Shown in pieces: positions 34,108 through 64,000 of a stretch of 64,000 bases of DNA. This DNA comes from Dehalococcoidia bacterium. Lineage in GTDB: Bacteria; Chloroflexota; Dehalococcoidia; UBA2979. The DNA is taken from NCBI GenBank assembly GCA_965226785.1, contig CBDDEC010000004.1:1324521-1388520 (forward strand), given 5' to 3'. Position 1 is the first letter of the stretch. Every line of letters starts with the position of its first letter. The notes below the pieces were generated by a model that saw nothing but the letters and a program-made list of their open reading frames with translations, ran no database searches and had not been told where the DNA came from. The position numbers were made by a program, and so were the translations under genes.

Positions 34108-34934
34108 CGGCGTCCGCCGGCGGAATCCGTGGAGTTCGCGCGGCCACACGGATCGCCCTCCGCGCTGGGGACTATTGGGAGAACGTCCCGCGCAATCCCT
34201 GGCTGCTCGGGCACCCGCATGTTGTCAGAAGGTCTCGCCGCCGGCCCGAGCCACCTCTTGATGAGCACGTTGAATTCACCTCCGCTTTCCTTTCGCCGAT
34301 CGCCCGGTCCAGCTTGCCCTGTAACTCGTGATCGCTCCCGGATGCCCACCCAACACGGGCGTCGAGCAGCACCGCGGGGCCGATGAGCGTCAGCCTGCCT
34401 GTACCGCTCCTGGTTTCTTGGACACTTCGTCAGCGGTAATCATGCGGCCGCTCCGGTACTCGGCGAGGCCACGGCGCACGGCGACGGGAGTGCGGTGACC
34501 GTGGCGCTCGACGAGCCACGCCTGGTTGTAGCGGTCCTGCGAAAGACGGTCTGGAGCGGATGCCAGGAAGCGCCGCTCGCCCTGGAAGTGGTGGCTGAGG
34601 TACTGGCTGCCGTGGTCGTGGCGCAGGCTGAGCCCCGAGGCGACGCCCGCCCCGACGACGCCACAGCTGCCCACAGCCCCTGGCGCAGCGGCTCCAGCGC
34701 CTCGCAGCGCGTGCCCGGTCGAGAGCGGTGTGATGCCGACTTATTCCTGCGTGCCGTCGTCCATGGCGACGTCTCTCCTCCATTGCGGTTTCGCCAGGCA
34801 CCGGCCCGGTATCCGGGCGGGGCGGGCACAGCCGGGACGCACCCATCGCCGGTTGCAGGGGGGCGGGCGTGACCACAGCCACCAGCCAAGGCAGCACGTG
34901 CCTGTACGTCGAGTTGCAGGAAGCACAGCCTCCC

Positions 34935-36406: not shown

Positions 36407-36409
36407 CGC

Positions 36410-36785
36410 GCTCTCGCCGCGCATCCTCTCGCTCAGGCAGCGCGAGGACCAGCTCGCCGCGGTGCGCGAAGACGCGGCGCGGCAGCTGGAGGAGCGCCGG
36501 GTGGAGTTGCCGACCTCGGATGAGATCCGGGCGTACGTGGCGGACTTCCGGGAGTTCCTGGAGAAGGGAACGTCCCCCGAGCGCAAGGCGCTGCTCCGTA
36601 ACTTCGTGCAGGGTATCGAGGTCTCGGGCGACGAGGCCGAGCTGACGTACACGATTCCCATGCCGGCCGGGGGCGTAACGCGCGAGCGGGCGGCGGTTCC
36701 TGATTTCGTCCAGTCCGGCCCCACCAGACTGGACAAAATCGAGAACCTTCGTCCTGAGGTTCCGTTTGGCGCTGTAGCCGCGTAG
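36410..36785 (+). pseudogene. C-terminal fragment of a serine recombinase (large serine recombinase coiled-coil/C-terminal region)
   Basis: ...LRQREDQLAAVREDAARQLEERRVELPTSDEIRAYVADFREFLEKGTSPERKALLRNFVQGIEVSGDEAELTYTIPMP. The 5' part is replaced by the IS-B end. Confidence 0.45.
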
Positions 36786-41801: not shown

Positions 41802-42397
41802 CGGCTGAGCAGCTGACTCGGGCTCCGTCAGAACTCAGACCACCGATCCGCTGCTAGCGTCGGAGTGAACGACGACGCTGGGGAGGATTGCCTGTGATGT
41901 GCCCGCGCTGCAGCTCGAGTGAGACTAGTTCGCGCAGCCGACGCACCTCGACGCCGTCGACGAAGAGCTGGGTGCTGCGCCAGCCGGCGACCAGGCCGAG
42001 CAGGCGGTCCAGCGTCGGCAGCCGATCGGAGTGGACCGGCACCAGGTGCCGGCGCACGCCGTGCGCCTCGGTGAGGCGGGAGCCGGGGACCGACGCGGCC
42101 AGCGCCTCGGCCGCGGCGTAGCGTCGAGACGACGACTTGGCGAAGGCGATCACGTAGCGAGATCTGCGCTCGTCCATCGCTGAGCATGGACGCTCGACGC
42201 TCCCACCAAGTCAAGTCGTACCGACCGGCGACCAGCGGGACTCGTGATGGGGTGCGGGCGATTGAGAACATGTGTGCTACACTCGCGCCGATGCAAGTAA
42301 CTACTCCTGGTGATCAGCCTGGGCAAGCCCATTCCGAGAGCGGAAACTCGTCCCGTGGTGGGCTTCTCGAACAGCAGGCCGCCGCGCTGCGAGGCCC

Positions 42398-43463
42398 GTG
42401 GGACGGCAAAACCTCATGCGGCCCACCGATACTCATGATGCAAACCTCCCAGCACCGGCTTGCGTCCCTCCGGAGAGTCTAGCGCCAATAACCGATGCGG
42501 CCGCATCGCGTTGTAGTGCTGGACGTACTCACCAAGCACCCGCCTCCGATGCCGTTCGTTGACGGCGATGACGTGATCGAGGCACTCGCGCCGGAGCGTC
42601 CCGATCACCCGCTCGGCGATGGCGTTGGCGTTCGGCGCGCGCACCGGAGTCAGAATTGTCTCGATCCCGATCCGTCGAGCGCGTGCGATGAAGTGCTCGC
42701 CATAGCTACGGTCGCGGTCTCGGATCAGGAACTGAGGCCGCTCACCCCACACCGTCGCCTCGATCATCTGCCTCCAGATCCAGGGCGCGATCGGGTGCTC
42801 CGTGACGTTCCAGTGCCGGATGCGGCGCCGGCCGTGGTCGATCACGACGAACACGGAGAGCGTGCGGAAGGTGAGGGTCTGCACCGTGCACAGGTCAGCA
42901 GCCCAGATGTTGGACGCGTGGTTGCGCAGAAACGTGCGCCACGACTGACTCGGCGGTCGCCGCAGCGCCTGCCGGCGGTAGCGGCTCACGGTGCGAGCGC
43001 TCACCTCGAAGCCAAGCGCACGCAGCTCACGGCGCCCCACCGTGGATGCTCAGTGGCGATGCGGACGATCAGCTGTCGCAGCTCTGCGGGAATCCGGGGT
43101 CGTCCGGAGCGGCGACGACTCTTCCAGCGCCAGTAGGTGCGCCAAGCAGAACGATGCCAGCGCACCACCGTGTCCGGCTCGACCATCACGAGCGTGCCTC
43201 GCCAGCCGGACCAACCACGTGCCAGCAGTGACCAGAGTCGGCGGTCGTGGCGACGGAGCCGCGGTCGACGACGGCCCCTTGTGTAGACGGCGAGCTGATG
43301 CCGCAGCGCCAAGTGCTCGAGGACGAGATCTCGGCGGGCGCGGACCGATGCGAAGAGTGCTGCGACAAGCAGACGGAGGTAGAGCACAGACGAGCCTCTC
43401 GTGGCTCGCCGATACTCTGCTATCTCAGGACAGAGCTGCACCTATCAGGTTTTGCCGTCCCAC
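42398..43463 (-). mobile_element. IS-B (IS481-like) copy, transposase frameshifted (pseudogene)
   Basis: Pieces 43001-43441 and 42414-43040. Frameshift near 43030. An orphan 30-bp inverted-terminus fragment (catgaggttttgccgccccacgg) follows at 43464-43495. Confidence 0.8.
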
Positions 43464-43709
43464 GGCAGGTCGCATGAGGTTTTGCCGCCCCACGGCCATC
43501 TGTGTGTCGGGCCGACGTGAGGCGGGCCTCGAACCTAGCGCGGATTGACATGATCCGAACTCATGTACTAAACAGGGGTCATGAATAGATATCACGTTGA
43601 AACGGTGACCCAGGTCAGGGTTTCAGTGTGATCCTGAGACGAACGGACGTGGTTGCAGTGGCTCTGCCGGCCATGGACCACTTCTGCGAGCAGAGGTACG
43701 CGGCATGAG

Positions 43710-46051: not shown

Positions 46052-46318
46052 CCGCCAAACCCGCGCCGACGCGGCGAGAGCGCGGCAGTCGGTCCAAACG
46101 CTTCTGAGCGCATCAGAGGGACGCGGCGCCGATGGGCCGCCCCGAGCAAGCGCGGGCTCTGATGCTCCTATCGCCTGTCAGAAGTCAGGGCTCGCTGGCC
46201 TCGGCGAGCCGCATCCGCGGAATGGTGAGGGGACGCTGCTGGCGTGTCCAGACTGTACAGCCACGGCCACGACGAAGCGGAAGGGGCGCACCGCGTTCGG
46301 CTAGCGGGTCAGGCTCCC

Positions 46319-47437
46319 GTGGGGCGGCAAAACCTCATGCGGCCCACCGATACTCATGATGCAAGCCTCCTAGCACCGGCTTGCTGACGACTCGCTGACT
46401 CGGCGTCCGCTGCACCGGCGAGCGTCCCTCCGGAGAGTCGAGCGACAATGATCGATGCGGACGCATCGCGTTGTAGTGCTGGACGTACTCACCAAGCACC
46501 CGCCGGAGATGTTGTTCGTTGACCGCGATGACATGGTCGAGATCACTCGCGCCTGAGCGTGCCGATGACGCGCTCGGCGATGGCGTTGGCATTCGGCGCG
46601 TGCAGCGGAGTCAGAATCGTCTCGATCCCGAGCCGTCGAGCGCGTGCGATGAAGTCTCCGCCATAGCTACGGTCGCGGTCTCGGATGAGGAACCCTGGCT
46701 GCTGACCCCAGGCGGTCGCCTCGATCAGCTGCTGCCAGATCCAGGGCGCGATCGGGTGCTCCGTGACGTTCCAGTGCCGGATGCGGCGCCGGTCGTGGTC
46801 GATCACGATGAGCACGTAGAGCGTGCGGAAGGCGAGCGTCTGGACCGTGAACAGATCGGCGGCCCAGATGCTGGACGCGTGGTTGCGGAGAAACGTGCGC
46901 CACGACTGGCTCGGCGGTCGCCGCAGCGCTTGCCGGCGGTAGCGACTGACGGTGCGGGCGCTCACCTCGAAGCCAAGGGCACGCAGCTCGCCGACGATGC
47001 GGACGGCGCCCCACCGCGGATGCTCAGTGGCGATGCGGACGATCAGCTGTCGCAGCTCTGCGGGAATCCGGGGTCGTCCGGAGCGGCGACGACTCTTCCA
47101 GCGCCAGTAGGCGCGCCAAGCAGAACGATGCCAGCGCACCACCGTGTCCGGCTCGACCATCACGAGCGTGCCTCGCCAGCCGGACCAACCACGTGCCAGC
47201 AGTGACCAGAGTCGGCGGTCGTGGCGACGGAGCCGCGGTCGACGACGGCCCCTTGTGTAGACGGCGAGCTGATGCCGCAGCGCCAAGTTCTCGAGGACGA
47301 GATCTCGGCGGGCGCGGACCGATGCGAAGAGTGCTGCGACAAGCAGACGGAGGTAGAGCACAGACGAGCCTCTCGTGGCTCGCCGATACTCTGCTATCTC
47401 AGCATCGAACCGCACGGATCAAGTTTTGCCGTCCCAC
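46319..47437 (-). mobile_element. IS-B (IS481-like) copy with frameshifted transposase and variant right terminus
   Basis: Pieces 46543-47415 (290 aa) and 46335-46592. The right end reads ...ctcagcatcgaaccgcacggatcaagttttgccgtcccac instead of ...ctcaggacagacctgcacctatcaggttttgccgtcccac. Confidence 0.8.
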
Positions 47438-47955
47438 GGGCCGGAACTCTCAAGACTGGCCCTGTCGGGTCGACAGCGCCGTTTCTCACAGCCGCACGAA
47501 CATCGGCATGACGACCCGCTCGTGCGAAAGCGGATGCGCCTCGTTCTATGTGGCGCTGTCGTTCTGAGGGTAGACAGGCTCCCTGACGACGAAGGGACTC
47601 GGGGACGGTCCCTGAACCGATAACCCGGCGAGGGTCAGATAGTTCGAGTTTCGGTTATGGCCGGACCGTACTGCGAACTCACAGGGAGTTGGTGAGCCCG
47701 ACCGGAACCGTAGACAATGCGGGGCCAACAAGGGTCGCCCCGGGGGCAGTCGCCGGGGAGGCGATAGTCTGTCGCCGCCACTCCAGGGGACGCTGTTCTG
47801 GCGTGTCTCGAAAGTCCGGCAGAAGGAAGCGGCTCAGCCTGTACGACCGTGGCAAAACCGCTTGTCCGATCTGCCTGACGGGTTTCACCCATGACCGGGC
47901 GCGGCTACGCGTTCGGACTGCTCTGTAGCTGACGCCCGACCGCGAGGGAGCCGAT

Positions 47956-48902
47956 ATGTCGATGCGAGACTGGTCCCGGCGTGCTGTTCGAAGCGCGACG
48001 GCCGTGGGGGTGCTGCTCTTCGCAGCCGCGTCGTTGGCGTCCTGCGACGTAGCCGACACCGATCGGGTGGCCGGGGTAGACCTTGAGGCGGCCACCATCC
48101 TGACCGAGCACACCGACACCGGTACGGCCACGCTCAAGGACGGCGAGTTCCGGGCGCCGGTCGCGCCCGGCTCGGCCAGCGAACTCGTGATCCGCCTCAG
48201 CCAGTGGACCCTCGGCGACCTCGACGGCGACGGCCTCGCGGACGCCGCCGCCATCACGATCGAGTACCCGGGCGGCAGCGGGAACTTTCGCTACCTGCAC
48301 GCGCTGCTGAACGAGGAGGGCGAACTCCACGACGCCGACACCGTCTTCCTCGGCGACCGGATACGCGTCGCGGGCCTCTCGATCCACGAAAGAATCATCA
48401 CGGTGGCGGTCATCGAGAGGCCGCCCGACGCGCCGTTCTCCGAGGTACCTTCCATCCTGGTCATTCGCCGGTTCCGCCTCGCGGGCGAGGCACTGGAGGA
48501 GATCGCGGGCATCAGCGGCGCTGACGCGTTCGCGTGTAACGACAGCCTCCCCGACGCCGCGCTCGTGATCGTGAACTCGCCCGCGGGCGGCGGGGAGGTC
48601 GCGAACGGGTTCACGGTCCGCGGCTGCTCGCGCACGTTCGAGTCGAACGTGCAGTGGCGGCTGCTCGACCGCGAAGGCGAGGAGCTGGCGAGCGGCTTCG
48701 CGATGGGCGGTGGAGTGGATGGCCCCGCGCCCTTCGTCTTCGATGTCGAGTACGAAGCGGCCGAGCGCCAGATCGCGCACCTTGAGGTGTTCGAGGAAGA
48801 CGCGTCCGGGGGTGAGGGCTTCCCGCCGCCTCGCGCCGTCGTGCCGCTGGTGATCGCCATCAAGGTCCGGCCCGCCCCGGACGCCGAGGCGCGGCTGCGC
48901 CC
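47956..48902 (+). CDS. Lipoprotein with C-terminal Gmad2-type Ig-like domain; 3' end interrupted by IS-B
   Basis: Signal peptide with LASC lipobox. GFTVRGCSRTFESNVQWRLLDREGEELASGFAMGGG...FVFDVEY. The ORF reads into the IS-B IR at 48903. Confidence 0.5.
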
Positions 48903-50014
48903 GTGGGACGGCAAAACCTCATGCGGCCCACCGATACTCATGATGCAAGCCTCCTAGCACCGGCTTGCTGACGACTCGCTGACTCGGCATCCGCTGCACC
49001 GGCTTGCGTCCCTCCGGAGAGTCGAGCGCCAATGACCGATGCGGCCGCATCGCGTTGTAGTGCTGGACGTACTGACCAAGCACCCGCCGGAGATGTTGTT
49101 CGTTGACCGCGATGACATGGTCGAGACACTCGCGCCTGAGCGTGCCGATCACGCGCTCGGCGATGGCGTTGGCATTCGGCGCGTGCACCGGAGTCAGAAT
49201 CGTCTCGATCCCGATCCGTCGAGCGCGTGCGATGAAGTCCCCGCCATAGCTACGGTCTCGGATGAGGAACCCTGGCTGCTGACCCCAGGCGGTCGCCTCG
49301 ATCATCTGCCTCCAGATCCAGGGCGCGATCGGGTGCTCCGTGACGTTCCAGTGCCGGATGCGGCGCCGGCCGTGGTCGATCACGACGAACACGTAGAGCG
49401 TGCGGAAGGTGAGGGTCTGCACCGTGAACAGGTCAGCAGCCCAGATGCTGGACGCGTGGTTGCGCAGAAACGTGCGCCACGACTGACTCGGCGGTCGCCG
49501 GAGCGCCTGCTGACGGTAGCGGCTCACGGTGCGAGCGCTCACCTCGAAGCCAAGAGCACGCAGCTCACCAACGATGCGGACGGCGCCCCACCGTGGATGC
49601 TCAGTGGCGATGCGCAGGATCAGCCGCTGCCACTCGGCGGGAATGTGGGGACGCCCAGGTCCGCGACGACTCTTCCAGCGCCAGTAGGCGCGCCAGGCAG
49701 AACGATGCCACCGCACAACCGTGTCCGGCTCGACCATCACGAGCGTGCCTCGCCAGCCGGACCAACCGCGTGCCAGTAGTGACCAGAATCGGCGGTCGTG
49801 GCAACGGAGCCGCGGTCGACGACGGCCCCGAGTGTAGACGGCGAGCTGATGCCGCAGCGCTAAGTTCTCGAGGACGAGATCTCGGCGGGCGCGGACCGAA
49901 GTGAAGAGTGCTGCGACAAGCAGACGGAGGTAGAGCACAGACGAGCCTCTCGTGGCTCGCCGATACTCTGCTATCTCAGGACAGAGCTGCACCTATCAGG
50001 TTTTGCCGTCCCAC
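48903..50014 (-). mobile_element. IS-B (IS481-like) insertion sequence, intact copy
   Basis: IRs gtgggacggcaaaacc / ggttttgccgtcccac. 357-aa transposase at 48919-49992. Confidence 0.85.
48919..49992 (-). CDS. DDE transposase (rve integrase core; IS481-like, VVRWHR...GRP motif family)
   Basis: HTH N-terminus, DDE core (WAADLFTV...VIDHGRRRIRHWNVTEHP...LIRDRSYGGDF...AIAERVIGTLRRE). 357 aa. Confidence 0.85.
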   Translation of the reverse strand: MQLCPEIAEYRRATRGSSVLYLRLLVAALFTSVRARRDLVLENLALRHQLAVYTRGRRRPRLRCHDRRFWSLLARGWSGWRGTLVMVEPDTVVRWHRSAWRAYWRWKSRRGPGRPHIPAEWQRLILRIATEHPRWGAVRIVGELRALGFEVSARTVSRYRQQALRRPPSQSWRTFLRNHASSIWAADLFTVQTLTFRTLYVFVVIDHGRRRIRHWNVTEHPIAPWIWRQMIEATAWGQQPGFLIRDRSYGGDFIARARRIGIETILTPVHAPNANAIAERVIGTLRRECLDHVIAVNEQHLRRVLGQYVQHYNAMRPHRSLALDSPEGRKPVQRMPSQRVVSKPVLGGLHHEYRWAA

Positions 50015-50325
50015 GGGCACCTGAACACACCGGCCGTGGAGGCGGTACGGCGCTTGCTCGATGCCGGCTACACGCTGGTGGGACAAAACGATGACGGAAC
50101 GCGGCACTTGGAGAGAGAGTTTGGGAACAAGATAGCGTCACGTCTGTTGGGAGAGTACTTCATACCGAAGAGCATGCCGGGGGGTATCGCGCCTTCATCA
50201 AGCAAGGGAGGTTCCTCGCCACGGCACCAGCGGCGATCCAATCTAGCCAACTGGCCGCCGCCCGCGATAACCTGATACGGAGAGACGGCGCGAGCCGTCG
50301 GCATGGAACCGCGGGAGGCCTCGCC

Positions 50326-51990: not shown

Positions 51991-53512
51991 GTGGGACGGC
52001 AAAACTTGATCCGTGCAGGTCTGTCCTGAGATAGCAGAGTATCGCCGGATTCGCGGCCAGCCTGTGGGGCACGAAAACCTCATCCGCCGTATCCGCGAGG
52101 CGCGCCGCTGACTCCGAAACGCTGAAATCATGGGCTGGATGGAATATTGCCGCCCCACGGGGGTGCAGGTCGGTCGCTTGATCCGTGCGGGCTTGCGTTC
52201 GGTGATCTCGACCAGGCTAAACCTCCTCGAGCAAGAACCGATGACGCGCTCGGCGATGGCGTTGTCTCGCATTCGCTCGCGTGCACCGGCACCGGTCGAA
52301 TCGATCAGTTCTCCGTCGCCGTCGATCGCTCGGTAGAGGTAGCACCAGCGCCCAGCGACCTTCACGTATCGTCTCGATCCCGAGCCGTCGAGCGCGTGCG
52401 ATGAAGTCTCCGCCATAGCTACGGTCGCGGTCTCGGATCTGATGGAGGAACCTTGGCTGCTGGAGGCTGTCGCCGGCGATCTGCCCTCTCGGGCGGGGGA
52501 CCAGATCCAGGGCGCGAATCGAAACTGCTCCGTGACGTTCCAGTGCCGGATGCGGCGCCTCGTGCGTCGACCTCACGACGAACACGTAGAGCGTGCGGAA
52601 GAGCTGAGCGGTCTGGACCGTGAACAGTCGGCGGCCCAGATGCTGGACGCGTGGTTGCGGCAGAAACGTGCGCCACGACTGGCTCGGCGAGGCGCCGCAG
52701 CGCTTGCCGGTCGGTAGCGACTGAAGATGGTTGCGGGCGCTGCACCTCGAAGCCAAGGGCACGCAGCTCACCGACGATGCGGACGGCGTTGAACCACCGC
52801 GGATGCTCGAGTGGCGATGCGCGATCAGCCGCTGTCGCAGCTCTGCGGGAATCCGTGGGTCGTCGCGATGCACAGCGTCCGCGGACGACTCTTCCACCGA
52901 TGCCAGTAGGCTCGTCCATGCTCAGACGAGGCTAAACCTCACAGTTCGAGCCCTCAGATCTGACGCAGACGACGATCTTCATCTCTTCGGTGATTTCCAG
53001 CGCGCGAGCATCGAGGGCGCCTCGGAACAGGCCAGGGAAACAGAGCATGTTGTTGATCTGGTTCGGGAAGTCCGAACGACCGGTCGCGCCAAGCAGAACG
53101 ATGCCAGCCGCACCACCGTAATGTCCGGCTCGACCATCACGAGCGTGCCTCGCCAGCCGGACCAACCACGTGCCAGCAGTGACCAGAGATCGGCGGTCGT
53201 GGCGACGGAGCCGCGGTCGACGACGGCCCCTTGTGTAGACGGCGAGCTGATGCTCGCAGCGCCAAGTTCCGATCACGAGGATCGGCGGAGATCTGCGCCA
53301 CGACTGGCTCGGGGGGCGCCGCAGCGCTTGCCGGCGGTAGCGACTCACGGCGGGCGCAGGATCGGACGGGGTCGATGCAGTAGTGAGCCGCGGTCGACGA
53401 CAGAGTGCTGCGACAAGCAGACGGAGGTAGAGCACAGACGAGCCTCTCGTGGCTCGCCGATACTCTGCTATCTCAGCATCGAACCGCACGGATCAAGTTT
53501 TGCCGTCCCACG
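51991..53512. repeat. Mosaic 'junkyard' of short IS-B and IS6 fragments
   Basis: Bounded by an inverted IS-B terminus (51991) and the variant IS-B terminus (53512). The interior alternates 20-100-bp stretches of IS-B transposase sequence and IS6 sequence (for example 52925-52975 is the IS6 right end; 52140-52200 and 52285-52370 are IS6 internal), with additional IR-like pieces (gtggggcacgaaaacc). Confidence 0.75.
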
Positions 53513-53564
53513 GGTCGCCTCTGCGTGGACAACCGGACATGAGTAGCCGACTGAGCGGGCCTGT

Positions 53565-55974: not shown

Positions 55975-56246
55975 GGGAATGCAACGCTGCTGGCCTGCTG
56001 CGATGTCATCATCGCTACCGAGAGCTCCACGATCGGTGTGAGCGCGCCGGCTGTCGTGGAGGCGAGCGGGCTGGGCACCCACTCTCTTCAGGAGATCGGC
56101 TCGATGGCATTACAGGCGCGCAACGGCAACGTCGACATCGTCGTCGAGGATGACGCCGCCGCAGTCGCGACCGCGAGGAAGTACCTCGGATACTTTCAGG
56201 GCCCGATTGAGCCGGGAGAGGCTCCGGATCAGCGCCGGATGCGGCC
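55975..56246 (+). pseudogene. Acyl-CoA carboxylase carboxyltransferase (AccD/PccB-like) internal fragment, cut by IS-B
   Basis: VIIATESSTIGVSAPAVVEASGLGTHSLQEIGSMALQARNGNVDIVVEDDAAAVATARKYLGYF matches the conserved carboxyltransferase region. Reads into the IS-B IR. Confidence 0.5.
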
Positions 56247-57364
56247 GTGGGACGGCAAAACCTCATGCGGCCCACCGATACTCATGATGCAAGCCTCCTA
56301 GCACCGGCTTGCTGTCGACTCGCTGGCTCGGCATCCGCTGCACCGGCTTGCGTCCCTCCGGAGAGTCGAGCGCCAATGACCGATGCGGCCGCATCGCGTT
56401 GTAGTGCTGGACGTACTCACCAAGCACCCGCCGGAGATGTTGTTCGTTGACCGCGATGACATGGTCGAGACACTCGCGCCTGAGCGTGCCGATGACGCGC
56501 TCGGCGATGGCGTTGGCATTCGGCGCGTGCACCGGAGTCAGAATCGTCTCGATCCCGAGCCGTCGAGCGCGTGCGATGAAGTCTCCGCCATAGCTACGGT
56601 CGCGGTCTCGGATCAGGAACCCTGGCTGCTGACCCCAGGCGGTCGCCTCGATCATCTGCTGCCAGATCCAGGGCGCGTTCGGATGCTCCGTGACGTTCCA
56701 GTGCCGGATGCGGCGCCGGTCGTGGTCGATCACGATGAGCACGTAGAGCGTGCGGAAGGCGAGCGTCTGGACCGTGAACAGATCGGCGGCCCAGATGCTG
56801 GACGCGTGGTTGCGGAGAAACGTGCGCCACGACTGGCTCGGGGGGCGCCGCAGCGCTTGCCGGCGGTAGCGACTCACGGTGCGGGCGCTGACCTCGAAGC
56901 CAAGGGCACGCAGCTCGCCGACGATGCGGACGGCGCCCCACCGCGGATGCTCAGTGGCGATGCGCAGGATCAGCCGCTGCCACTCGGCGGGAATGTGGGG
57001 ACGCCCAGGTCCGCGACGACTCTTCCAGCGCCAGTAGGCGCGCCAAGCAGAACGATGCCAGCGCACCACCGTGTCCGGCTCGACCATCACGAGCGTGCCT
57101 CGCCAGCCGGACCAACCACGTGCCAGCAGTGACCAGAGTCGGCGGTCGTGGCGACGGAGCCGCGGTCGACGACGGCCCCTTGTGTAGACGGCGAGCTGAT
57201 GCCGCAGCGCCAAGTTCTCGAGGACGAGATCTCGGCGGGCGCGGACCGATGCGAAGAGTGCTGCGACAAGCAGACGGAGGTAGAGCACAGACGAGCCTCT
57301 CGTGGCTCGCCGATACTCTGCTATCTCAGGACAGACCTGCACCTATCAGGTTTTGCCGTCCCAC
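56247..57364 (-). mobile_element. IS-B (IS481-like) insertion sequence, intact copy
   Basis: IRs as above. 359-aa transposase at 56263-57342. Confidence 0.85.
56263..57342 (-). CDS. DDE transposase (IS481-like family)
   Basis: 359 aa. Reference sequence for the IS-B family in this window. Confidence 0.85.
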   Translation of the reverse strand: MQVCPEIAEYRRATRGSSVLYLRLLVAALFASVRARRDLVLENLALRHQLAVYTRGRRRPRLRRHDRRLWSLLARGWSGWRGTLVMVEPDTVVRWHRSAWRAYWRWKSRRGPGRPHIPAEWQRLILRIATEHPRWGAVRIVGELRALGFEVSARTVSRYRRQALRRPPSQSWRTFLRNHASSIWAADLFTVQTLAFRTLYVLIVIDHDRRRIRHWNVTEHPNAPWIWQQMIEATAWGQQPGFLIRDRDRSYGGDFIARARRLGIETILTPVHAPNANAIAERVIGTLRRECLDHVIAVNEQHLRRVLGEYVQHYNAMRPHRSLALDSPEGRKPVQRMPSQRVDSKPVLGGLHHEYRWAA

Positions 57365-57464
57365 GGGCCGAGATGAAGTCGCCCAGCTCGACGACCCGCA
57401 GGCCCTCGAGCGCTTGATCCGCCATCGGCGTGAGCCTCCGTCCGTACCGTTCCGGCGCGGGGAC

Positions 57465-58343
57465 CTAGGTGTCGCTGAACTGCGGCCGGCGCTTCTCGGA
57501 GAACGCGGTCGGACCTTCAACGGAATCCTGCATGCCCTGCAGGTTCTGCTCCAGCGCACGCCCGAAGGCATCGGCCTGCAGCGGGTCGAGGTAGAACCCG
57601 CGGTAGAGCGCTTCCTTGTTGTTGCGCACCGCCCGCGGCGCCATATCCAGTGCGCGCTGCGCGTACTGCATGGCGGTGTCCATCAACTCCTCCTGCGGCA
57701 CCACGCGCTGCACCCAGCCGAGCTGATGGCAGCGCTGGGCGTCGTACTGCGTGTCGCCCCAGAGCATGAGCTCGAGTGCCGACCCGAGGCCGATCTGGCG
57801 CGTCAGCGGGATCATCCAGCCGGCGCCACCCATGTTCCACCGCACCTCGGCGATGCCGACCCGGGCGTGGTCGGCCATGACGCGAATGTCGCACTGCATC
57901 GCGTACATGAATCCACCGGCGATGGCGTAGCCGTTGACCGCAGCAATCGTAGGCTTCCAGAGGTTCATGCCCTCGGCCAGCGGGCCGATGTTCTTGCCCG
58001 TGCGCGGGGCGCGATAGCCGGTCGGCGCGCCGCTCTCCGCCTGTGCCTGCCGTGTCTCCGAGGTGGCGATCAAGTCGGCACCGGCGCAGAAGGCGCGGTC
58101 GCCCGCTCCGGTCAGGATCGCGACCCGCGCGGTGGGGTCGTCGCGGAACGCCGCGAAGGCGTCGTAGAGCGCCTCCCCCAGGCCGTCGCCGATGGCGTTC
58201 ATGCGGTGAGGACGGTTCAGCGTGATCACGTAGATCTGTCCATCCTCGTGGCGCTCGGTCTTCACGACCGGGCCGAAGGTGGACTGCGGTGTGTCGCGGC
58301 CGTGCTGCGCCGGGTCGTACGCCTGCTGCTCTGTGTCGGCCAT
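57465..58343 (-). CDS. Enoyl-CoA hydratase/isomerase family protein
   Basis: ITLNRPHRMNAI...LTGAGDRAFCAGADL...C-term GPTAFSEKRRPQFSDT. GGGAG RBS before the ATG at 58343. Confidence 0.8.
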   Translation of the reverse strand: MADTEQQAYDPAQHGRDTPQSTFGPVVKTERHEDGQIYVITLNRPHRMNAIGDGLGEALYDAFAAFRDDPTARVAILTGAGDRAFCAGADLIATSETRQAQAESGAPTGYRAPRTGKNIGPLAEGMNLWKPTIAAVNGYAIAGGFMYAMQCDIRVMADHARVGIAEVRWNMGGAGWMIPLTRQIGLGSALELMLWGDTQYDAQRCHQLGWVQRVVPQEELMDTAMQYAQRALDMAPRAVRNNKEALYRGFYLDPLQADAFGRALEQNLQGMQDSVEGPTAFSEKRRPQFSDT

Positions 58344-58463
58344 CGCTGCGCTCCCTGACTGCCGTCGAGGCACCCTCGACGCTCCCGCGTGACGCGTGCC
58401 ATGGTAGCGACCACACGCCGACGCGACGAGGGCGGCGGGTGAGCGCCGGGAAGCGCGGCGACG

Positions 58464-58736
58464 TCAGGCCTGGGTGCGCTCGCGCCGCTTGCGGACGAGC
58501 TTCACATCGAGCCGGTAACCGAGCGCCTCGGCGAGCGTCGCGAGGCGGTCGATCGAGGGGCTCTGCGCGCCCGATTCGAAGCGGTTGATCACGGGTTGCG
58601 AAACGCCGGCCCGCTCCGCAAGATCCCGCTGCGACATACGTCGGTCGAGCCTCGCCTTGATGAACTGCCGAATCACCGCATAGCGAGGAGCGAGCCGGTC
58701 AACCTCGGCCTGCAGGCCAGGCCGTTCGCGCAGCAT
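58464..58736 (-). CDS. XRE-family helix-turn-helix transcriptional regulator (about 90 aa)
   Basis: MSQRDLAERAGVSQPVINRFESGAQSPSIDRLATLAEALG is a canonical HTH_XRE. Confidence 0.75.
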   Translation of the reverse strand: MLRERPGLQAEVDRLAPRYAVIRQFIKARLDRRMSQRDLAERAGVSQPVINRFESGAQSPSIDRLATLAEALGYRLDVKLVRKRRERTQA

Positions 58737-58749
58737 TCGTTCCCACACT

Positions 58750-59273
58750 TCCGACGCTTTGAAGGGCTTGATCGCGCACAGTTTCGCCGGGTAGTGCGCT
58801 ACTTGAAGCGCTGGAAAGACGAGCACTTCCCCTCTGATGGCTGGGCCGCGCCTCCAGGCATTGCTCTGACGGTCGCCGCGTACCACGACCTTGAGACCAG
58901 GTTCCTCGACAGCCTGACAGGCAAGCCCGACGATCTCGCCGCACTCCGAACGCTCGTTTCGGCGATGCTCGTGCGCTTTCAGGACCGCTGGGATGCCGAC
59001 GAGCAGAAGCTAGTTCGGCGGATCGCGATTCTTCGCCCGGTGCCCCCCTCTGATGACCTGCTTGGCCGCATGACCGCGAAGCAGATGGGCGCCCTCGAGG
59101 GTGAGTTGATCAGATTGCAGGACGCCCTGAGCGAGGCCGCCGACGCCGTCGATCCGGTCGAGGCCTGCAAGAGACTACAGGAAGCGTTCGGGGACGATTT
59201 CCCGGTGCCGGCGAAGAAGGACACGGCGTCGCAGCATGCCCCTGCGATCGTCTCGTCGAGTAGCAGCGCCTGA
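58750..59273 (+). pseudogene. C-terminal helical domain of a cGAS/DncV/OAS-like nucleotidyltransferase (CD-NTase-like); catalytic N-terminal half absent
   Basis: RVVRYLKRWKDEHFPSDGWAAPPGIALTVAAYH matches the OAS/cGAS C-domain motif (LIRLVKHW...LPPQYALELLTVYAW). No in-frame start codon and no GS...DxD upstream. The region is overlapped antisense by the XRE gene. Confidence 0.45.
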
Positions 59274-59335
59274 ACTGGGGGCGAGCCACGGATCGTCACG
59301 ACGCCATCCTGAGCGAGTTCGAGAAGCTCGGCCTC

Positions 59336-59947
59336 TTGAAGGCTCCCCACCGGGTCGATCCGGGCGGTTCGGCTGTTGCCGCGCTCGAGGGCCAGGCCGA
59401 CGTCGAAGAGCATGAGGTCACACTGCGCCTGGTCCTTGACCGCGACTTTTCACTTCGGCTACCGCAGTGGTTCCTGCAACCATCGAACGCGCTCGGCACA
59501 ATCCCGCATGTGGACGAGAACGGTTTGATCTGCGTCGCCGACCCTGAAGGGCTGGTGCTGGACCGGCATCGACCCGTTGCAGTCATCCGCGAAGCCCTCA
59601 TGAAGGCGATGGGCGTGCTCGAGGACGGGGTCAGCGGGCGCAACCATGCCGACTTCGTCGACGAGCTCGAGTCGTACTGGCGGCGCCTTCCTAAGGCGAC
59701 CAGCGTGACATCCGTGATGGAGCCCACGAGCAACGTCCACGATCTCCAGATGGTCGTGAGCCACGAGGGTGAAGTACCGCTGGTCGGCGCCACTCACGAC
59801 GATGTCGTCGCCTTCAATAACGGTGCCGCACTCGGGGGGAAGGTAACGCTGCGTGGTGGTCTCTACCTCCCTCTCGAGCCCGGTTCCACGGTGGTCCCTC
59901 CCGCTGTCCCGCCACATTATTCGAGTGCGGCCGGTTTGACGGTCTGA
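59336..59947 (+). CDS. Bacterial E2-like (UBC-fold) protein, 3' end truncated by IS-C
   Basis: HEVTLRLVLDRDFSLRLPQWFLQPSNALGTIPHVDENGLICVADPEGL matches the UBC core (F.L.I.FP.DYP..PP.V.F.T.IHPNV...G.ICLDIL), with the catalytic Cys in LICV. The last about 14 codons and the stop lie inside the IS-C left IR (59906 onward). Confidence 0.5.
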   Translation: MKAPHRVDPGGSAVAALEGQADVEEHEVTLRLVLDRDFSLRLPQWFLQPSNALGTIPHVDENGLICVADPEGLVLDRHRPVAVIREALMKAMGVLEDGVSGRNHADFVDELESYWRRLPKATSVTSVMEPTSNVHDLQMVVSHEGEVPLVGATHDDVVAFNNGAALGGKVTLRGGLYLPLEPGSTVVPPAVPPHYSSAAGLTV

Positions 59948-61029
59948 CGGCTGCGGTCGAGCCTTCCGCTGGGGCGGGAGGCCGAAATGCTGATCTACCT
60001 GCAGCTCGTGTTGTGGACGTTACGCCGAGCGGCTCTCGCGCGTGGGGATCTACTGCTCGAGAACCTCGCGCTTCGCCAGCAGCTGGCGATGTACGAGCGG
60101 CACCCGACGATCCGCGATGGCGACCGCGCCTTCTGGAGCCTCCTCGCGGGCCGGTGGCCAAACTGGCGCAGAGCGGTTGTTGTCGTGAGCCCCGAGACGG
60201 TCGTGCGCTGGCACCGCGCTGGCTGGCGTCGCTATTGGCGCTGGAAGAGCAGGGGCCGGCGGGCCGGTCGTCCTCGGATCCCCGAGGAGGCGCGTGAGCT
60301 GATCGCCCAGATGTCGCAGGAGAACCGCTGCTGGGGTGCGCGTCGAATCCAGGGTGAGCTACGCGCCCTCGGCTACGAGGTGAGCGCCGAGACGGTGCGC
60401 CGCTACCGACTCCAGGCGCTGCGCCGTCCGCCGTCGCAGCGCTGGCAGACCTTCCTTGCCAATCACCGCAAGGAGATCTGGGCCACCGACTTCTTCACGG
60501 TCCCGACCGTGCTCTTCCAGACCCTCTATGTGCTGTTCTTCGTCTCGCACGACCGCCGCCGCATCGAGCACATCAACGTGACGGCGCATCCGACGGCTGC
60601 GTGGGTGTGGCGCCAGGTGATCGAGGCGACGCCATGGGGCAGCCGGCCGCGTTTCCTCATTCGAGACCGCGACCGCTCCTACGGCGGCGACCTCATCGCG
60701 AAGGCGAGCGGCATCGGCATCGAGACGGTGCTGACGCCGATCCGGGCACCGCAGGCGAACGGGATCGCAGAGCGCCTGATCGGGACGCTGCGCCGCGACT
60801 GCACCAACCACATCATCCCACTGAGCGAGCGCCACCTCCGCAGGGTCCTGCTCGAGTACGTCGCCTACTACAATGCGACGCGGCCGCATCAGACGCTTGG
60901 GCAGGAGACGCCAGAAGGTCCGCGGGAGGTGCGGCTCGCCGGGATGGTGCGCGGAGACGAGGTGCTGGGCGGGCTCCACCACCGCTACGAACGAGTCGCT
61001 GCCTAGGGTTCCGAGTTTTGTGGCAGGAC
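59906..61029 (+). mobile_element. IS-C: IS481-like element, diverged paralog of IS-B
   Basis: IRs tgtcccgccacattattcgag / ccgagttttgtggcaggaca. The 339-aa transposase at 59987-61006 is about 55% identical to the IS-B transposase (same VVRWHR...GRPRIP and DDE motifs). Confidence 0.75.
59987..61006 (+). CDS. DDE transposase (IS481-like family, IS-C)
   Basis: 339 aa. LENLALRQQLAMY, VVRWHRAGWRRYWRWKSRGRRAGRPRIP, DDE core. Confidence 0.8.
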   Translation: MLIYLQLVLWTLRRAALARGDLLLENLALRQQLAMYERHPTIRDGDRAFWSLLAGRWPNWRRAVVVVSPETVVRWHRAGWRRYWRWKSRGRRAGRPRIPEEARELIAQMSQENRCWGARRIQGELRALGYEVSAETVRRYRLQALRRPPSQRWQTFLANHRKEIWATDFFTVPTVLFQTLYVLFFVSHDRRRIEHINVTAHPTAAWVWRQVIEATPWGSRPRFLIRDRDRSYGGDLIAKASGIGIETVLTPIRAPQANGIAERLIGTLRRDCTNHIIPLSERHLRRVLLEYVAYYNATRPHQTLGQETPEGPREVRLAGMVRGDEVLGGLHHRYERVAA

Positions 61030-61692
61030 AGCCGGATGCGGCGCCGGTCGTGGTCGATCACGATGAGCACGTAGAGCGTGCGGAAGGCGAGCGTCTGGAC
61101 CGTGAACAGATCGGCGGCCCAGATGCTGGACGCGTGGTTGCGGAGAAACGTGCGCCACGACTGGCTCGGGGGTCGCCGCAGCGCTTGCCGGCGGTAGCGA
61201 CTCACGGTGCGGGCGCTGACCTCGAAGCCAAGGGCACGCAGCTCGCCGACGATGCGGACGGCGCCCCACCGCGGATGCTCAGTGGCGATGCGGACGATCA
61301 GCTGTCGCAGCTCTGCGGGAATCCGGGGTCGTCCGGAGCGGCGACGACTCTTCCAGCGCCAGTAGGCGCGTCAAGCAGAACGATGCCAGCGCACCACCGT
61401 GTCCGGCTCGACCATCACGAGCGTGCCTCGCCAGCCGGACCAACCACGTGCCAGCAGTGACCAGAGTCGGCGGTCGTGGCGACGGAGCCGCGGTCGACGA
61501 CGGCCCCTTGTGTAGACGGCGAGCTGATGCCGCAGCGCCAAGTTCTCGAGGACGAGATCTCGGCGGACGCGGACCGATGCGAAGAGTGCTGCGACAAGCA
61601 GACGGAGGTAGAGCACAGACGAGCCTCTCGTGGCTCGCCGATACTCTGCTATCTCAGGACAGACCTGCACCTATCAGGTTTTGCCGTCCCAC
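61030..61692 (-). mobile_element. IS-B partial copy (transposase N-terminal two-thirds only, with in-frame stop), truncated by IS-C
   Basis: Right IR ends at 61692. Transposase N-terminus at 61371-61670 ends at a TGA (ccaagc to tcaagc). The sequence stops at the IS-C right end. Confidence 0.8.
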
Positions 61693-61829
61693 GAGCCGAC
61701 CGGATGCTTGTGGTAGAGCCAGTCCATCAGGCCGCGGACCTGCTCACGGTTCCAGACGTACCCGCGCTGAAACTCGGGGAGAGCGACGCTCCCGAGGTCG
61801 ATCTGGTCAAGGATCGTGCTGACCTTCAT
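61693..61829 (-). pseudogene. DUF262 (GmrSD-like) N-terminal fragment, cut by IS-B
   Basis: MKVSTILDQIDLGSVALPEFQRGYVWNREQVRGLMDWLYHKHPVGS matches the DUF262 consensus. The frame continues into the IS-B IR. Confidence 0.55.
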
Positions 61830-61963: not shown

Positions 61964-64000
61964 ATGGCTCCCTCGCCGACCGTGACCCCGGACGAGTTCG
62001 TCGCCAAGTGGGCGCCGAACGCCGGGCGGGAGCGGTCGTCGTCACAGGAGCACTTCATCGACCTCTGCCACATGCTCGGCGTCCCTACACCGAACGACGC
62101 AGACCCGACCGCCAAGGATGAGTACGCCTTCGAGAAGGGCGCTTCGAAAACCGGCGGAGGCGACGGCTGGGCCGACGTATGGAAGCGGGGCTACTTCGGC
62201 TGGGAGTACAAGGGCAAGAAGCACCCCAACCTCCCCGCCGCATACAAACAGCTGCTCGACTATCGCGAGGACCTCGAGAACCCTCCGGTGCTCGTCGTCT
62301 GCGACATGGACCTGATCGAGGTCCACACCAACTTCACTAACACCGCCCCGCAGATCCTCGAGGTGCGCCTCAGCGACCTCACCGACAACACCGAGGAGGC
62401 GCTACGCATCCTGCGCTCGGTGATGTCCGACCCGGAGGCGCTGCGGCCGGGCCAAACGCCTGAGGAGATCACCGAGGCCGCCGCCAGCCAATTCGCCGTG
62501 ATCGCGAGGTCGATGCAGGACCGCGAACACGCACCCGAGGATGTCGCACACTTCCTGAATCGCGTGTTGTTCTGTCTCTTCGCCGAGGACGTGGGCCTGC
62601 TGCCGGAGCGGATCGTGACTGAGCTGATCGAAGGGCGGTGGCGCGACCCGGTTAGGTTCGCGGAGGGCCTCTCAGAGCTCTTCCGCCACATGTCGTATGG
62701 CGGACACTTCGGCGTCCACGAGATCGCCTGGTTCAACGGGGGACTGTTTACCGGCGACGAGGTCCTCGAGTTCACACGCGAAGAGCTGGGAACCGTCGCC
62801 GAGGCGTCAGGTCTCGATTGGTCGCGCGTGGAGCCGGCGATCCTCGGCACACTGTTCGAGCGCGGGCTCGACCCCGAGAAGCGCGCACAGCTCGGCGCTC
62901 ATTACACCGACCGCGAGAAGATCCTGATGGTCGTCGAACCAGTCGTCATGCGGCCCCTGCGCCGCGAGTTCGAAGAGATGCAGCAGGGCATCGAGACACT
63001 GGCCGAAGGCCAGTCGCAAGCGCCACTCACACGAGACGGGCGACGGCGAGCCAACCTCCCGAAGTGGGAGCGTGACGCGCAGGCGCTCTACGGGGCCTAC
63101 CTCGATCGCCTGCGCGCTGTCCGAGTACTCGACCCCGCCTGCGGCTCCGGCAACTTCTTGTACGTCACGCTGGGCCTGCTCAAGGACCTTGAGCGCGACG
63201 CGATGCGCTGGGGGGCCGAACGCCTTCGCCTGATCGGTCAGTTCCCCGAGGTGGGACCGCAGAACATGCTCGGCATCGAGATCAATCCTTACGCCCGTGG
63301 GTTGGCAAGCGTTTCGCTCTGGATCGGCCATATCCAGTGGATGCGCAACAACGGATTCGGCTACCCGCGCGACCCAGTCCTCGGTGCCCCCGACAACATC
63401 GAGCAGCGCGACGCCATCCTCACCCAAAAGGACGAGGAGAAGCCCATATCGGCGGAGTGGCCACAGGCGGAGTTCATCGTCGGCAATCCACCGTTTCTGG
63501 GTGACCGTCGCATGCGTGAACAGCTTGGCGACGAGTATGTCGATCGTCTCCGGTCAGCGTATCTACAACGAGTCCCAGCTGGTGCCGACTTGGTCTGTTA
63601 CTGGTACGAGCAGGCGCGTTCCCACATCGAGGGTGGATTCGCACGCCGTGCAGGCTTGCTCGCGACTTCGAGCATTCGGAAAGGTCAGAACAACAAGGTT
63701 GTGAAGCGAATCAGCGAGTCGGGTGCGCTCTTCGAGGCGTGGTCTGCCGAGGACTGGGTCGTCGAAGGAGCCGCCGTCGAGGTCTCGATCGTTGGCTTCG
63801 ACGATGGGAGGGAGTCGCTCAAGAGGCTCGACGGCGAGGCAGTAGATCGCATCAACTCTGATCTCACGACCGGGTCAGACCTGACTCAGGCCGTGAAGCT
63901 GCGCGAGTGCCGCGGCTTGGCCTTCATGGGCGACATCAAGGCCGGCTCGTTCGAGATGGACGGCGACGATGCCAGGAGAATGCTGGGGCGTGCTGGGAAT
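61964..64000 (+). CDS. MmeI/PglX-family N6-adenine DNA methyltransferase (type IIL R-M enzyme or BREX PglX-like), 3' partial (runs off window)
   Basis: 679 codons with no stop from the ATG at 61964. MmeI-like N-terminal domain (EFVAKWAPNAGRERSSSQEHFIDLCHMLGVPTP...DGWADVWKRGYFGWEYKGKK with D...EYK). SAM motif I VLDPACGSGNFL and motif IV FIVGNPPF. Missed by the ORF track because there is no in-window stop. Confidence 0.75.
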   Translation, partial: MAPSPTVTPDEFVAKWAPNAGRERSSSQEHFIDLCHMLGVPTPNDADPTAKDEYAFEKGASKTGGGDGWADVWKRGYFGWEYKGKKHPNLPAAYKQLLDYREDLENPPVLVVCDMDLIEVHTNFTNTAPQILEVRLSDLTDNTEEALRILRSVMSDPEALRPGQTPEEITEAAASQFAVIARSMQDREHAPEDVAHFLNRVLFCLFAEDVGLLPERIVTELIEGRWRDPVRFAEGLSELFRHMSYGGHFGVHEIAWFNGGLFTGDEVLEFTREELGTVAEASGLDWSRVEPAILGTLFERGLDPEKRAQLGAHYTDREKILMVVEPVVMRPLRREFEEMQQGIETLAEGQSQAPLTRDGRRRANLPKWERDAQALYGAYLDRLRAVRVLDPACGSGNFLYVTLGLLKDLERDAMRWGAERLRLIGQFPEVGPQNMLGIEINPYARGLASVSLWIGHIQWMRNNGFGYPRDPVLGAPDNIEQRDAILTQKDEEKPISAEWPQAEFIVGNPPFLGDRRMREQLGDEYVDRLRSAYLQRVPAGADLVCYWYEQARSHIEGGFARRAGLLATSSIRKGQNNKVVKRISESGALFEAWSAEDWVVEGAAVEVSIVGFDDGRESLKRLDGEAVDRINSDLTTGSDLTQAVKLRECRGLAFMGDIKAGSFEMDGDDARRMLGRAGN

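Follow-up and report, generated by a model that had tools for sequence, protein, structure and literature searches.

The XRE-type gene, CD-NTase-like segment and E2-like open reading frame (ORF) lying side by side before an insertion sequence raise the question of whether they form a working defence module, an undescribed conjugation system, or the remains of a known one. The definition of type II CBASS and the roles of Cap2 and Cap3 are described in PMC10419184. Within the window, the whole 64-kb stretch of DNA analysed here, the 1.15-kb segment 58749-59903 is very probably what is left, as pseudogenes, of an anti-phage operon of the type II CBASS kind. With equally high confidence, the ancestral operon had four genes, encoding a CD-NTase, a Cap2 E2-E1 protein, a Cap3 JAB protein and an endonuclease-SAVED effector. 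The reading of the segment as a decayed type II CBASS is an ordinary one, the system being of a known kind. The three coding elements and the insertion sequence listed by an earlier note on this DNA were all confirmed in place, with matches far beyond chance. The features are as follows.

58464..58756, minus strand: XRE/HigA-like antitoxin gene, 5'-truncated (Pfam HTH_3, HTH_37; DNA identity to related contigs L008 and L009)
58749..58757, no strand: junction, with the truncated XRE and CD-NTase genes meeting head to head (ends of the two homologies)
58749..59273 including the stop codon, plus strand: CD-NTase fragment, C-terminal helical domain only (PADLOC Cyclase, 8ysc_A, tblastn, comparison with L013)
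59264..59903, plus strand: cap2 fragment, N-terminal E2 domain and linker (Pfam Prok-E2_B, PADLOC E1-E2)
59904..61031, plus strand: IS-C, 1128-bp IS481/IS3-like insertion sequence (inverted repeats, Pfam rve_3, HTH_32)
59904-59923: left inverted repeat (IRL) of IS-C, 20 nt, CTGTCCCGCCACATTATTCG
59987-61006: transposase gene of IS-C (Pfam rve_3 and HTH_32)
61012-61031: right inverted repeat (IRR) of IS-C, 20 nt, CTGTCCTGCCACAAAACTCG
61032..61699, minus strand: truncated IS-A copy, 5' half of the transposase only (blastn to other IS-A copies)

The CD-NTase fragment corresponds to approximately residues 180-356 of the full-length enzyme and contains no internal stops or frameshifts. The PADLOC Cyclase model PDLC00795 matches 58749-59270 with an E-value of 3.8e-49 over profile positions 173-340 of 340, and PDB 8ysc_A matches through its residues 174-347 (E 1.4e-35); a literature search returned no paper for PDB code 8YSC. 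Against a 356-aa Ktedonobacteria CD-NTase (L013), identity is 55% over that enzyme's residues 189-347, and residues 58-231 of protein P0010 align to the fragment in one ungapped tblastn segment. It carries the QFRRVVRYLKRWKD motif followed by a conserved tail ending in HAPAIVSSSSSA and a stop codon, a tail common to its relatives, and thereby retains the conjugatable Gly/Ala-tailed C-terminal helical domain of type II CBASS; the YLKRWKD...ALTVAAY motif quoted in the earlier note is present. Full-length CD-NTase queries match only 58749-59270 in the 64-kb window (tblastn), revealing no Pol-beta-type NTase catalytic core and bearing out the earlier description of a C-terminal domain lacking its catalytic N-domain. 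A naturally split or short cyclase family, considered in view of many 150-250-aa matches, was rejected, these matches being explained by contig edges (L006, L007, L028), an N-gap (L002), a frameshift (L005) or true disruptions.

The adjoining plus-strand ORF, 59336-59947, matches Pfam Prok-E2_B (E 1.4e-17) and the PADLOC E1-E2 model PDLC00837 (E 1.3e-41, profile positions 32-217 of 593). It contains IPHVDENGLICV, with the catalytic Cys codon at 59531-59533, a residue invariant across an alignment of 10 relatives, and thus possesses the E2 (UBC-like) domain with catalytic Cys of type II CBASS, in agreement with its original description as a UBC-fold E2-like ORF. Profile searches, the check that had been proposed, accordingly placed this ORF with the Prok-E2_B and E1-E2 models and 58749-59270 with the Cyclase model. 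Searches of the PDB with the E2 fragment, by single sequence and by profile, gave no match, and structure comparison alone recovered Cap2 and E2 enzymes.

The suggestion that the E2 gene is otherwise intact fails at its native N-terminus, which has no canonical start codon. Cap2 homology begins at about 59282, upstream of the TTG at 59336, in a frame open from 59264 that offers no ATG, GTG or TTG before that TTG; a CTG at 59270 shares bases with the stop codon of the cyclase, and the window has GGG and GCC where Cap2 relatives have their native Met. At the other end, the last 15 codons (59903-59947) are IS-C sequence, with the stop codon inside the element. Homology to Cap2 proteins of 577-582 aa ends at residue ~208-213, at the IS-C boundary, leaving approximately residues 4-210 of ~580. 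The cut at about residue 210 lies ~100 residues ahead of the ThiF match (308-475) in a 582-aa relative, not exactly where an E1 domain would begin as had been supposed, and the fragment itself has no Pfam ThiF match and no fused E1. The idea of a diverged, undescribed E2 variant is likewise contradicted, since the fragment aligns throughout its length to the N-terminus of ordinary ~580-aa Cap2 proteins, and 107 of the 150 best library representatives related to it are at least 530 aa long (median 581), the matches all lying at their N-terminus.

Intact relatives encode CD-NTase, Cap2, Cap3 and endonuclease-SAVED in that order, as seen in the complete Ktedonobacteria genome L013 and in L011, L001, L002 and L005, with the L013 effector matching the PADLOC Endonuclease/SAVED model at 9e-111; a precomputed Pfam 'Acb5' label on an L001 gene was not reproduced with a local Pfam copy. 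When Cap2, Cap3 and SAVED proteins of such relatives were searched by tblastn against the whole 64-kb window, only Cap2 residues 9-208 were found, with no match for three Cap3 queries representing the JAB deconjugase or for the endonuclease-SAVED effectors of L001 and L002. Relocation of the NTase core, E1, Cap3 and SAVED by IS recombination was rejected on the same whole-window search. Compared with type II CBASS carrying a Cap2 E1-E2 fusion, such as Enterobacter cloacae CdnD-Cap2-Cap3 (PDB 7TO3) and the Vibrio cholerae DncV operon, the window keeps ~50% of the cyclase and ~36% of Cap2, lacking the NTase core, E1/ThiF domain, Cap3 and effector. The look for an uninterrupted orthologue, advised earlier, succeeded for distant operons with E1, Cap3 and SAVED and not for a close one: protein searches, an exhaustive representative search, GTDB genomes, JGI metagenomes and viral contigs yielded no close orthologue with an intact operon. 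With the best relatives at 46-61% identity, what happened, and in which order, is deduced solely from the junctions, and the ancestral locus cannot be rebuilt base by base.

The right-hand end of the cap2 fragment is set by IS-C, Cap2 homology stopping at 59902/59905 and the left inverted repeat starting at 59904. IS-C, a single copy in the window, has the expected layout of one DDE (rve) transposase gene (rve_3 4.7e-15) between terminal inverted repeats, which match at 16 of 20 positions. Its NCBIfam matches to IS481 (4e-26) and IS3 (2.3e-25) both fall below cut-offs, leaving the element without a family assignment, and its DNA is ~72% identical to that of IS-A. The flanks of IS-C are unrelated, cap2 sequence lying to the left and an internal part of IS-A to the right, where 61031-61699 matches 56703-57371 at 97% (blastn) as well as other copies of this abundant element. 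The flanks share only the bases CCG, which may be coincidence or may represent a short target duplication. These findings agree with the earlier proposal of an inactivated type II CBASS remnant, in which a CD-NTase C-domain fragment is followed by the E2 part of Cap2 cut by an insertion sequence. The surrounding defence island also houses a truncated toxin-antitoxin pair, a truncated GmrSD-like gene and a type IIG restriction enzyme.

The XRE gene has a different origin. The listed minus-strand ORF, 58464-58886, matches Pfam HTH_3 (E 5.6e-15) and HTH_37 (1.7e-7), the latter typical of HigA-type antitoxins. Comparison with L008 and L009 reveals that the real gene is shorter than this ORF, its 5' end being cut at 58756: the two contigs are 97.2% and 99.2% identical to the window DNA, with identity ending exactly at codon 8 (58755/58756), and their full-length XRE protein P0038 (103 aa) is 99% identical to that of the window. 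In both contigs a Gp49/HigB-like toxin gene (Gp49 7.3e-9) precedes the XRE gene by 13 bp, and the same enoyl-CoA hydratase gene as in the window follows it, with no CBASS adjoining the pair. In the window, the cyclase fragment stands where the toxin gene sits in L008 and L009. The XRE protein shares the HTH_3/HTH_37 architecture of HigB/HigA (Gp49 and HTH_37) modules, but unlike these the window holds no pair, only an orphan truncated antitoxin gene that has lost its toxin partner and first 7 codons, with possible residual starts at GTG 58745-58747 and ATG 58733-58735. The window XRE gene is a HigA-like antitoxin of an unrelated toxin-antitoxin pair, not a CBASS regulator, and of the three elements once assigned to a single CBASS operon, the CD-NTase and E2 fragments stand while the XRE gene does not.

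The earlier note had compared this gene to CapH-type regulators, which would make it a CapH-like repressor of the former operon, with the head-to-head arrangement ancestral. As in CapH/CapP systems, a small XRE-type HTH protein is encoded divergently beside the cyclase gene; CapH/CapP modules sit upstream of many CBASS operons (bioRxiv 10.1101/2022.04.27.489752), and L031 has a comparably truncated cyclase directly beside an ImmA/IrrE-like gene that is truncated too. The PADLOC capH model does match the XRE protein (E 2.8e-8), but more weakly than the generic HTH_VI and RmrA models. No CapP-type metallopeptidase gene, and hence no CapH/CapP module, is present beside it, its orthologue is paired with a Gp49/HigB-like toxin away from any CBASS, and the head-to-head junction itself cuts the 5' end off the window copy. 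Together with the HTH_37 match, this makes a CapH role extremely improbable.

At the left junction, XRE-locus identity stops at 58756 and CD-NTase homology (FRRFEGLDRAQFRR...) begins at 58749, so that the two may overlap by up to a few bases at 58749-58757; no IS end occurs at this junction. An assembly chimera might be suspected here, as the surroundings are full of IS copies 92-99% identical to one another, inviting mis-assembly, and L008 and L009 show a different arrangement. The junction nevertheless lies outside repeats, with 57371-59903 unique within the window in a blastn self-comparison, and similar cyclase truncations are found in independent assemblies. The assembly also runs through many near-identical IS copies, pointing to long reads or a finished genome. 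A chimera is very unlikely, and the junction is treated as a genomic rearrangement.

Both fragments are still open reading frames, which counts against a pure remnant, and a C-domain protein may be expressed, the cyclase fragment being contained in a 225-aa ORF that starts with TTG at 58596. A scan of 58380-60000 for promoters and terminators found none. One could envisage that a minimal module, either CBASS-like of the 'E2-only' (type II short) kind or ubiquitin-like and novel, still works here, in which a stand-alone E2 acts on a C-domain-only cyclase-derived protein under XRE control, the catalytic Cys and conjugatable C-terminal tail being kept and both frames uninterrupted. As in the Serratia marcescens CdnG-E2 system (PDB 8HSB), a UBC-fold E2 adjoins a CD-NTase gene; unlike it, the window E2 has no canonical native start or stop of its own, its N-terminus lacking a start codon and its ORF ending inside IS-C, the cyclase is truncated, and those 107 best relatives are ~580-aa fusions. 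Moreover, all PADLOC matches of the E2 fragment are E1-E2 fusion models, the XRE gene comes from a toxin-antitoxin pair and is itself truncated, and absence of the NTase core and effector leaves nothing to signal. Such a module is scarcely credible, and the segment is better regarded as a CBASS remnant, which, being unable to signal, conjugate or kill, would have no defence function.

From knowledge of the family, the CD-NTase of the intact ancestor would have produced a cyclic oligonucleotide upon infection, a signal activating the SAVED effector, and Cap2 would have primed the cyclase by conjugating its C-terminal tail (...SSSSSA) to targets, with Cap3 reversing the reaction. Two independent structural events probably destroyed the operon. 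In one, a deletion or illegitimate recombination would have joined cyclase codon ~180 head-to-head to codon 8 of the neighbouring higA-like gene, removing the cyclase catalytic core, the promoter region and the Gp49/HigB-like toxin gene. In the other, IS-C at cap2 codon ~210 would have led to loss of the E1 domain, cap3 and the effector gene either by an adjacent deletion that the IS mediated or by recombination of two IS-C copies, a step proposed because the other flank of IS-C is the interior of a different element, IS-A. The absence of internal stops from both the CD-NTase and cap2 fragments suggests that these events were fairly recent.

Across the clade, six independent CD-NTase disruptions (the window, L001, L003/L004, L025, L027 and L031) lie in a stretch of ~15 codons that immediately precedes the QFRRxxRYLKRW motif, where the catalytic core meets the C-terminal domain, with different partner sequences in every case. 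In most of the six, an ORF that possesses a start codon extends into the cyclase fragment; that of L001 forms an in-frame fusion with trkH and is followed by a Cap2-Cap3-SAVED operon that is otherwise intact. It is very doubtful that the position of the left breakpoint is other than accidental, reflecting either a recombination- and insertion-prone site or selection for a free-standing cyclase C-domain, which, keeping its Cap2-conjugatable tail, could for instance act as a decoy damping CBASS. The breakpoint region showed no distinctive dip indicating unusual AT-richness in 77 intact genes, and phage-borne C-domain-only cyclase genes were rejected, all three viral matches being full length.

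Annotators should label all three genes pseudogene fragments rather than a CBASS system or a novel E2. The locus, of little importance in itself, is one more costly abortive-infection system dismantled by deletions and insertion sequences within a defence island, and wider interest attaches to just one lead, the recurrent, unexplained breakpoint between core and C-domain in the cyclase genes of unrelated genomes.

The locus is very probably a dead pseudogene remnant of a type II CBASS operon. ORF listing and profile searches recovered all of the elements that the earlier note had placed here:

58464-58886, minus strand: XRE-type HTH ORF (Pfam HTH_3, E 5.6e-15; HTH_37, E 1.7e-7)
58749 to the stop codon at 59271-59273, plus strand: CD-NTase (cyclase) C-terminal fragment (profile, structure-sequence and protein matches)
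59336-59947, plus strand: E2-like ORF as listed (Pfam Prok-E2_B, E 1.4e-17)
59904-61031: insertion sequence IS-C, carrying a 339-aa rve-type transposase gene (Pfam) between its inverted repeats

The profile search of the 58750-59273 segment bore out its assignment to the C-terminal part of CD-NTases, with the PADLOC cyclase model PDLC00795 matching at E 3.8e-49 (profile positions 173-340 of 340). Only the C-terminal part of CD-NTases is matched. Residues 174-347 of 8ysc_A, a solved 348-aa nucleotidyltransferase, match the fragment at E 1.4e-35, and the 356-aa cyclase from Ktedonobacteria bacterium brp13 is 55% identical to it over residues 189-347. The tblastn alignment to relatives forms a single ungapped segment with zero stops, and full-length cyclases searched by tblastn against the whole window matched 58749-59270 and nothing else. 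About half of the cyclase survives, lacking the catalytic core. Cap2 conjugates the Gly/Ala C-terminus of the cyclase, and the C-terminal tail common to cyclases of this clade, ...APAIVSSSSSA, is consistent with such a terminus.

The E2 fragment is the N-terminal part of an ordinary Cap2. It shares 46% identity with residues 4-213 of the 582-aa Cap2 encoded in the Ktedonobacteria genome (Prok-E2_B at 41-139, ThiF at 308-475), and the nearest Cap2 relatives lie in Thermomicrobiales, Gemmatimonadaceae and Ktedonobacteria. Searched exhaustively, 1.84 billion representatives yielded 702 relatives; of the best 150, 107 were at least 530 aa long (median 581), and all matched at their N-terminus. The AlphaFold model (mean pLDDT 73.7) returned exclusively UBC-type E2 enzymes among its top 50 Foldseek matches in the PDB. 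The catalytic Cys (codon 59531-59533, within IPHVDENGLIC) is invariant among aligned relatives. A working E2-only or novel module is very improbable, since PADLOC matched the ORF with E1-E2 fusion models only (top E 1.3e-41, profile positions 32-217 of 593), and alignment to ordinary Cap2 proteins of about 580 aa likewise speaks against the undescribed variant once suggested. Nor is the gene otherwise intact, as had been proposed. Cap2 homology starts 5' of the TTG at 59336 (from 59303 by tblastn, from about 59282 by BLASTP) in a frame open from 59264. No ATG, GTG or TTG precedes 59336 in that frame, and the initiator-Met positions of relatives are GGG and GCC in the window, leaving the Cap2 fragment without a canonical start; a CTG at 59270 overlaps the stop codon of the cyclase fragment. 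At the other end, the final 15 codons and the stop belong to IS-C. About a third of Cap2 survives, without E1.

Beyond the cyclase and Cap2 fragments, no operon parts are present: tblastn of the whole window with the Cap2, Cap3 and SAVED-effector proteins of intact relatives matched Cap2 residues 9-208 alone. These relatives comprise L013 (a complete Ktedonobacteria genome), L011 (a Thermomicrobiales MAG) and the metagenomic loci L001, L002 and L005. All of them encode a cyclase, a Cap2 combining Prok-E2_B with ThiF (E1), a Prok-JAB Cap3 and a protein of 380-390 aa with a SAVED domain, the last classed by PADLOC in L013 as an endonuclease effector (E 9e-111). This set matches the canonical four-gene type II CBASS of the literature (PMC10419184). 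The reading as a decayed type II CBASS is upheld, with a coreless cyclase, a Cap2 lacking E1 and the rest of the operon absent.

Cap2 homology stops at 59902-59905, where the 20-nt inverted repeat CTGTCCCGCCACATTATTCG begins at 59904; its partner ends at 61031. The cut falls past the E2 core and its linker, at a distance of about 100 residues from the ThiF-homologous region that would follow, rather than exactly where E1 begins, as the earlier note had it. IS-C occurs once in the window and is about 72% identical to IS-A, a different, abundant element; NCBIfam scores its transposase about equally as IS481 and IS3, each under its cut-off. The right end of IS-C adjoins the interior of a truncated IS-A copy (61032-61699), Cap2 lies at its left, and the flanks share CCG only; the two flanks therefore do not belong to one site. 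Such mismatched flanks are the signature of an adjacent deletion mediated by the IS or of recombination between two copies of IS-C, either of which would explain why E1, cap3 and the effector gene were lost.

On the left, a protein search found P0038 (103 aa, MAPRKPGSEVWERML...) to be 99% identical to the XRE ORF. In the contigs that encode it, L008 and L009, XRE stands between a Gp49-family gene (Pfam Gp49, E 7.3e-9) and an enoyl-CoA hydratase gene, with IS-A at either outer end in the order IS-A, Gp49, XRE, hydratase, IS-A, and the window holds the same hydratase (57465-58373) and IS-A (56245-57370) left of XRE. DNA identity to the two contigs (97.2% and 99.2%) spans IS-A, hydratase and XRE, ending precisely at 58755/58756, XRE codon 8. 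Cyclase homology begins at 58749 (FRRFEGLDRAQFRR), so the two genes meet in a head-to-head joint, both without 5' ends. No IS end lies at this joint. An assembly chimera at 58756 is very improbable. The XRE gene is a HigA-like antitoxin gene from a Gp49/HigB-like pair, minus the toxin gene and its own first seven codons. The earlier note had likened it to CapH, which acts together with the peptidase CapP (bioRxiv 10.1101/2022.04.27.489752). That identity is highly unlikely: the ortholog is paired with Gp49 in L008/L009, no CapP-type peptidase gene is present at the locus, and the PADLOC capH match (E 2.8e-8) is weaker than the generic HTH matches. In L008 (150-3950) and L009 (1706-4018), an IS-A copy lies on each side of the Gp49-XRE-hydratase block, an arrangement resembling a composite transposon. 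The Gp49 gene there is probably truncated as well, because the Pfam model matches only from position 26 on and the 5' end overlaps the IS-A terminus.

Structural disruptions of CD-NTase genes in this clade cluster: six independent cases fall within about 15 codons 5' of QFRRxxRYLKRW, with differing partners (two IS families, trkH, XRE and an ImmA-like gene).

Breakpoints in cyclase genes, in codons upstream of the Q in QFRRxxRYLKRW
Window, 58749-58757, -10: head-to-head joint with truncated XRE gene
L001, 503-548, -10/-11: in-frame joint to AT-rich trkH 5' end; Cap2-Cap3-SAVED intact downstream
L003/L004, L003 1170-2298, -5: IS1595 insertion
L027, 1190-1247, about -13: DDE_Tnp_1 IS immediately upstream
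L025, about 7330-7386, -14 to -20: remnant on a 203-kb Nostoc contig, found via Cap2
L031, 598-615, about -3: head-to-head joint to truncated ImmA/IrrE-like gene

Disruptions elsewhere in the gene are frameshifts only, in L005 and one lineage (L035-L038), a tally that leaves out P0022 (229 aa, short match, 38.9-kb contig). A rough, post hoc calculation places chance clustering well below 1e-3; motif-based searches are blind to breaks downstream of QFRRxxRYLKRW, and ascertainment bias may contribute. Of about 75 metagenomic loci selected by the motif and having sufficient upstream DNA, about 74 are intact, L031 being the only truncated case, and phage contigs carry full-length cyclases only. 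Base composition at the breakpoint site is unremarkable, offering no compositional cause. This unexplained cluster is a lead and not a finding.

Several of these loci have further peculiarities. In L001 (215-1042), about 100 codons of an AT-rich trkH-like 5' end are fused in frame to the CD-NTase C-terminal half, with a sharp base-composition shift at the joint and apparently intact Cap2, Cap3 and SAVED effector genes after it; the joint may reflect either a genuine fusion or chimeric assembly of the metagenome. For the gene after the effector (4421-4729), the precomputed annotation gives the Pfam label PF26761 (Acb5), which a local Pfam scan without a match left unconfirmed. The metagenomic contigs L035, L036, L037 and L038 share a frameshift at about residue 95 of the cyclase (tblastn q3-95/q95-305, different frames), which could reflect a shared pseudogene mutation, recurrent sequencing error or recoding. 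Beside its truncated cyclase, L031 (266-600, minus strand) holds the 3' portion of an ImmA/IrrE-like gene (FGVSEEAAAYRMMNLGL...), then an HTH-like C-terminus; assigned by eye, it may be a CapP-like regulator truncated by the deletion that also took away the cyclase core.

The locus sits in an IS-ridden defence island, and the final third of the window amounts to a graveyard of insertion sequences. IS-A is present in at least eight copies or fragments with mutual identity of 91-99%, some nested or truncated.

56245-57370, 46317-47443, 48889-50018, 42396-43465 and 61032-61699: IS-A (IS481/IS3-like, 1.13 kb, terminal repeat CCGTGGGACGGCAAAACCT)
about 34930-36410 and 52040-53515: IS-A fragments
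61674-61829, minus strand: GmrSD/DUF262-type N-terminal fragment, 51 codons (Pfam GmrSD_N, 3.2e-9; PADLOC HEC-05, 1.4e-9)
about 61964-64000, past the window end, plus strand: MmeI-like type IIG restriction-modification enzyme ORF (PADLOC REase_MTase_IIG, E 9.4e-204; Pfam MmeI_N, MmeI_hel, MmeI_Mtase)

Immediately to the right of the truncated IS-A, whose end cuts it, sits the GmrSD/DUF262-type fragment, divergent from the type IIG gene. The type IIG ORF is missing from the ORF listing because it has no stop inside the window; the codon-position GC pattern shows that several of the minus-strand ORFs listed at 62042-63427 are antisense shadows of it.

The ancestral function of the operon would be that known for the family. 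The remnant would be unable to produce signal, to adenylate or conjugate the cyclase, or to kill the cell, and would thus be a dead locus. The lack of internal stops in both fragments suggests that these rearrangements are not ancient. As a pseudogene remnant, the locus is ordinary, derives from a well-known system and is of low interest, with the breakpoint lead as the exception.
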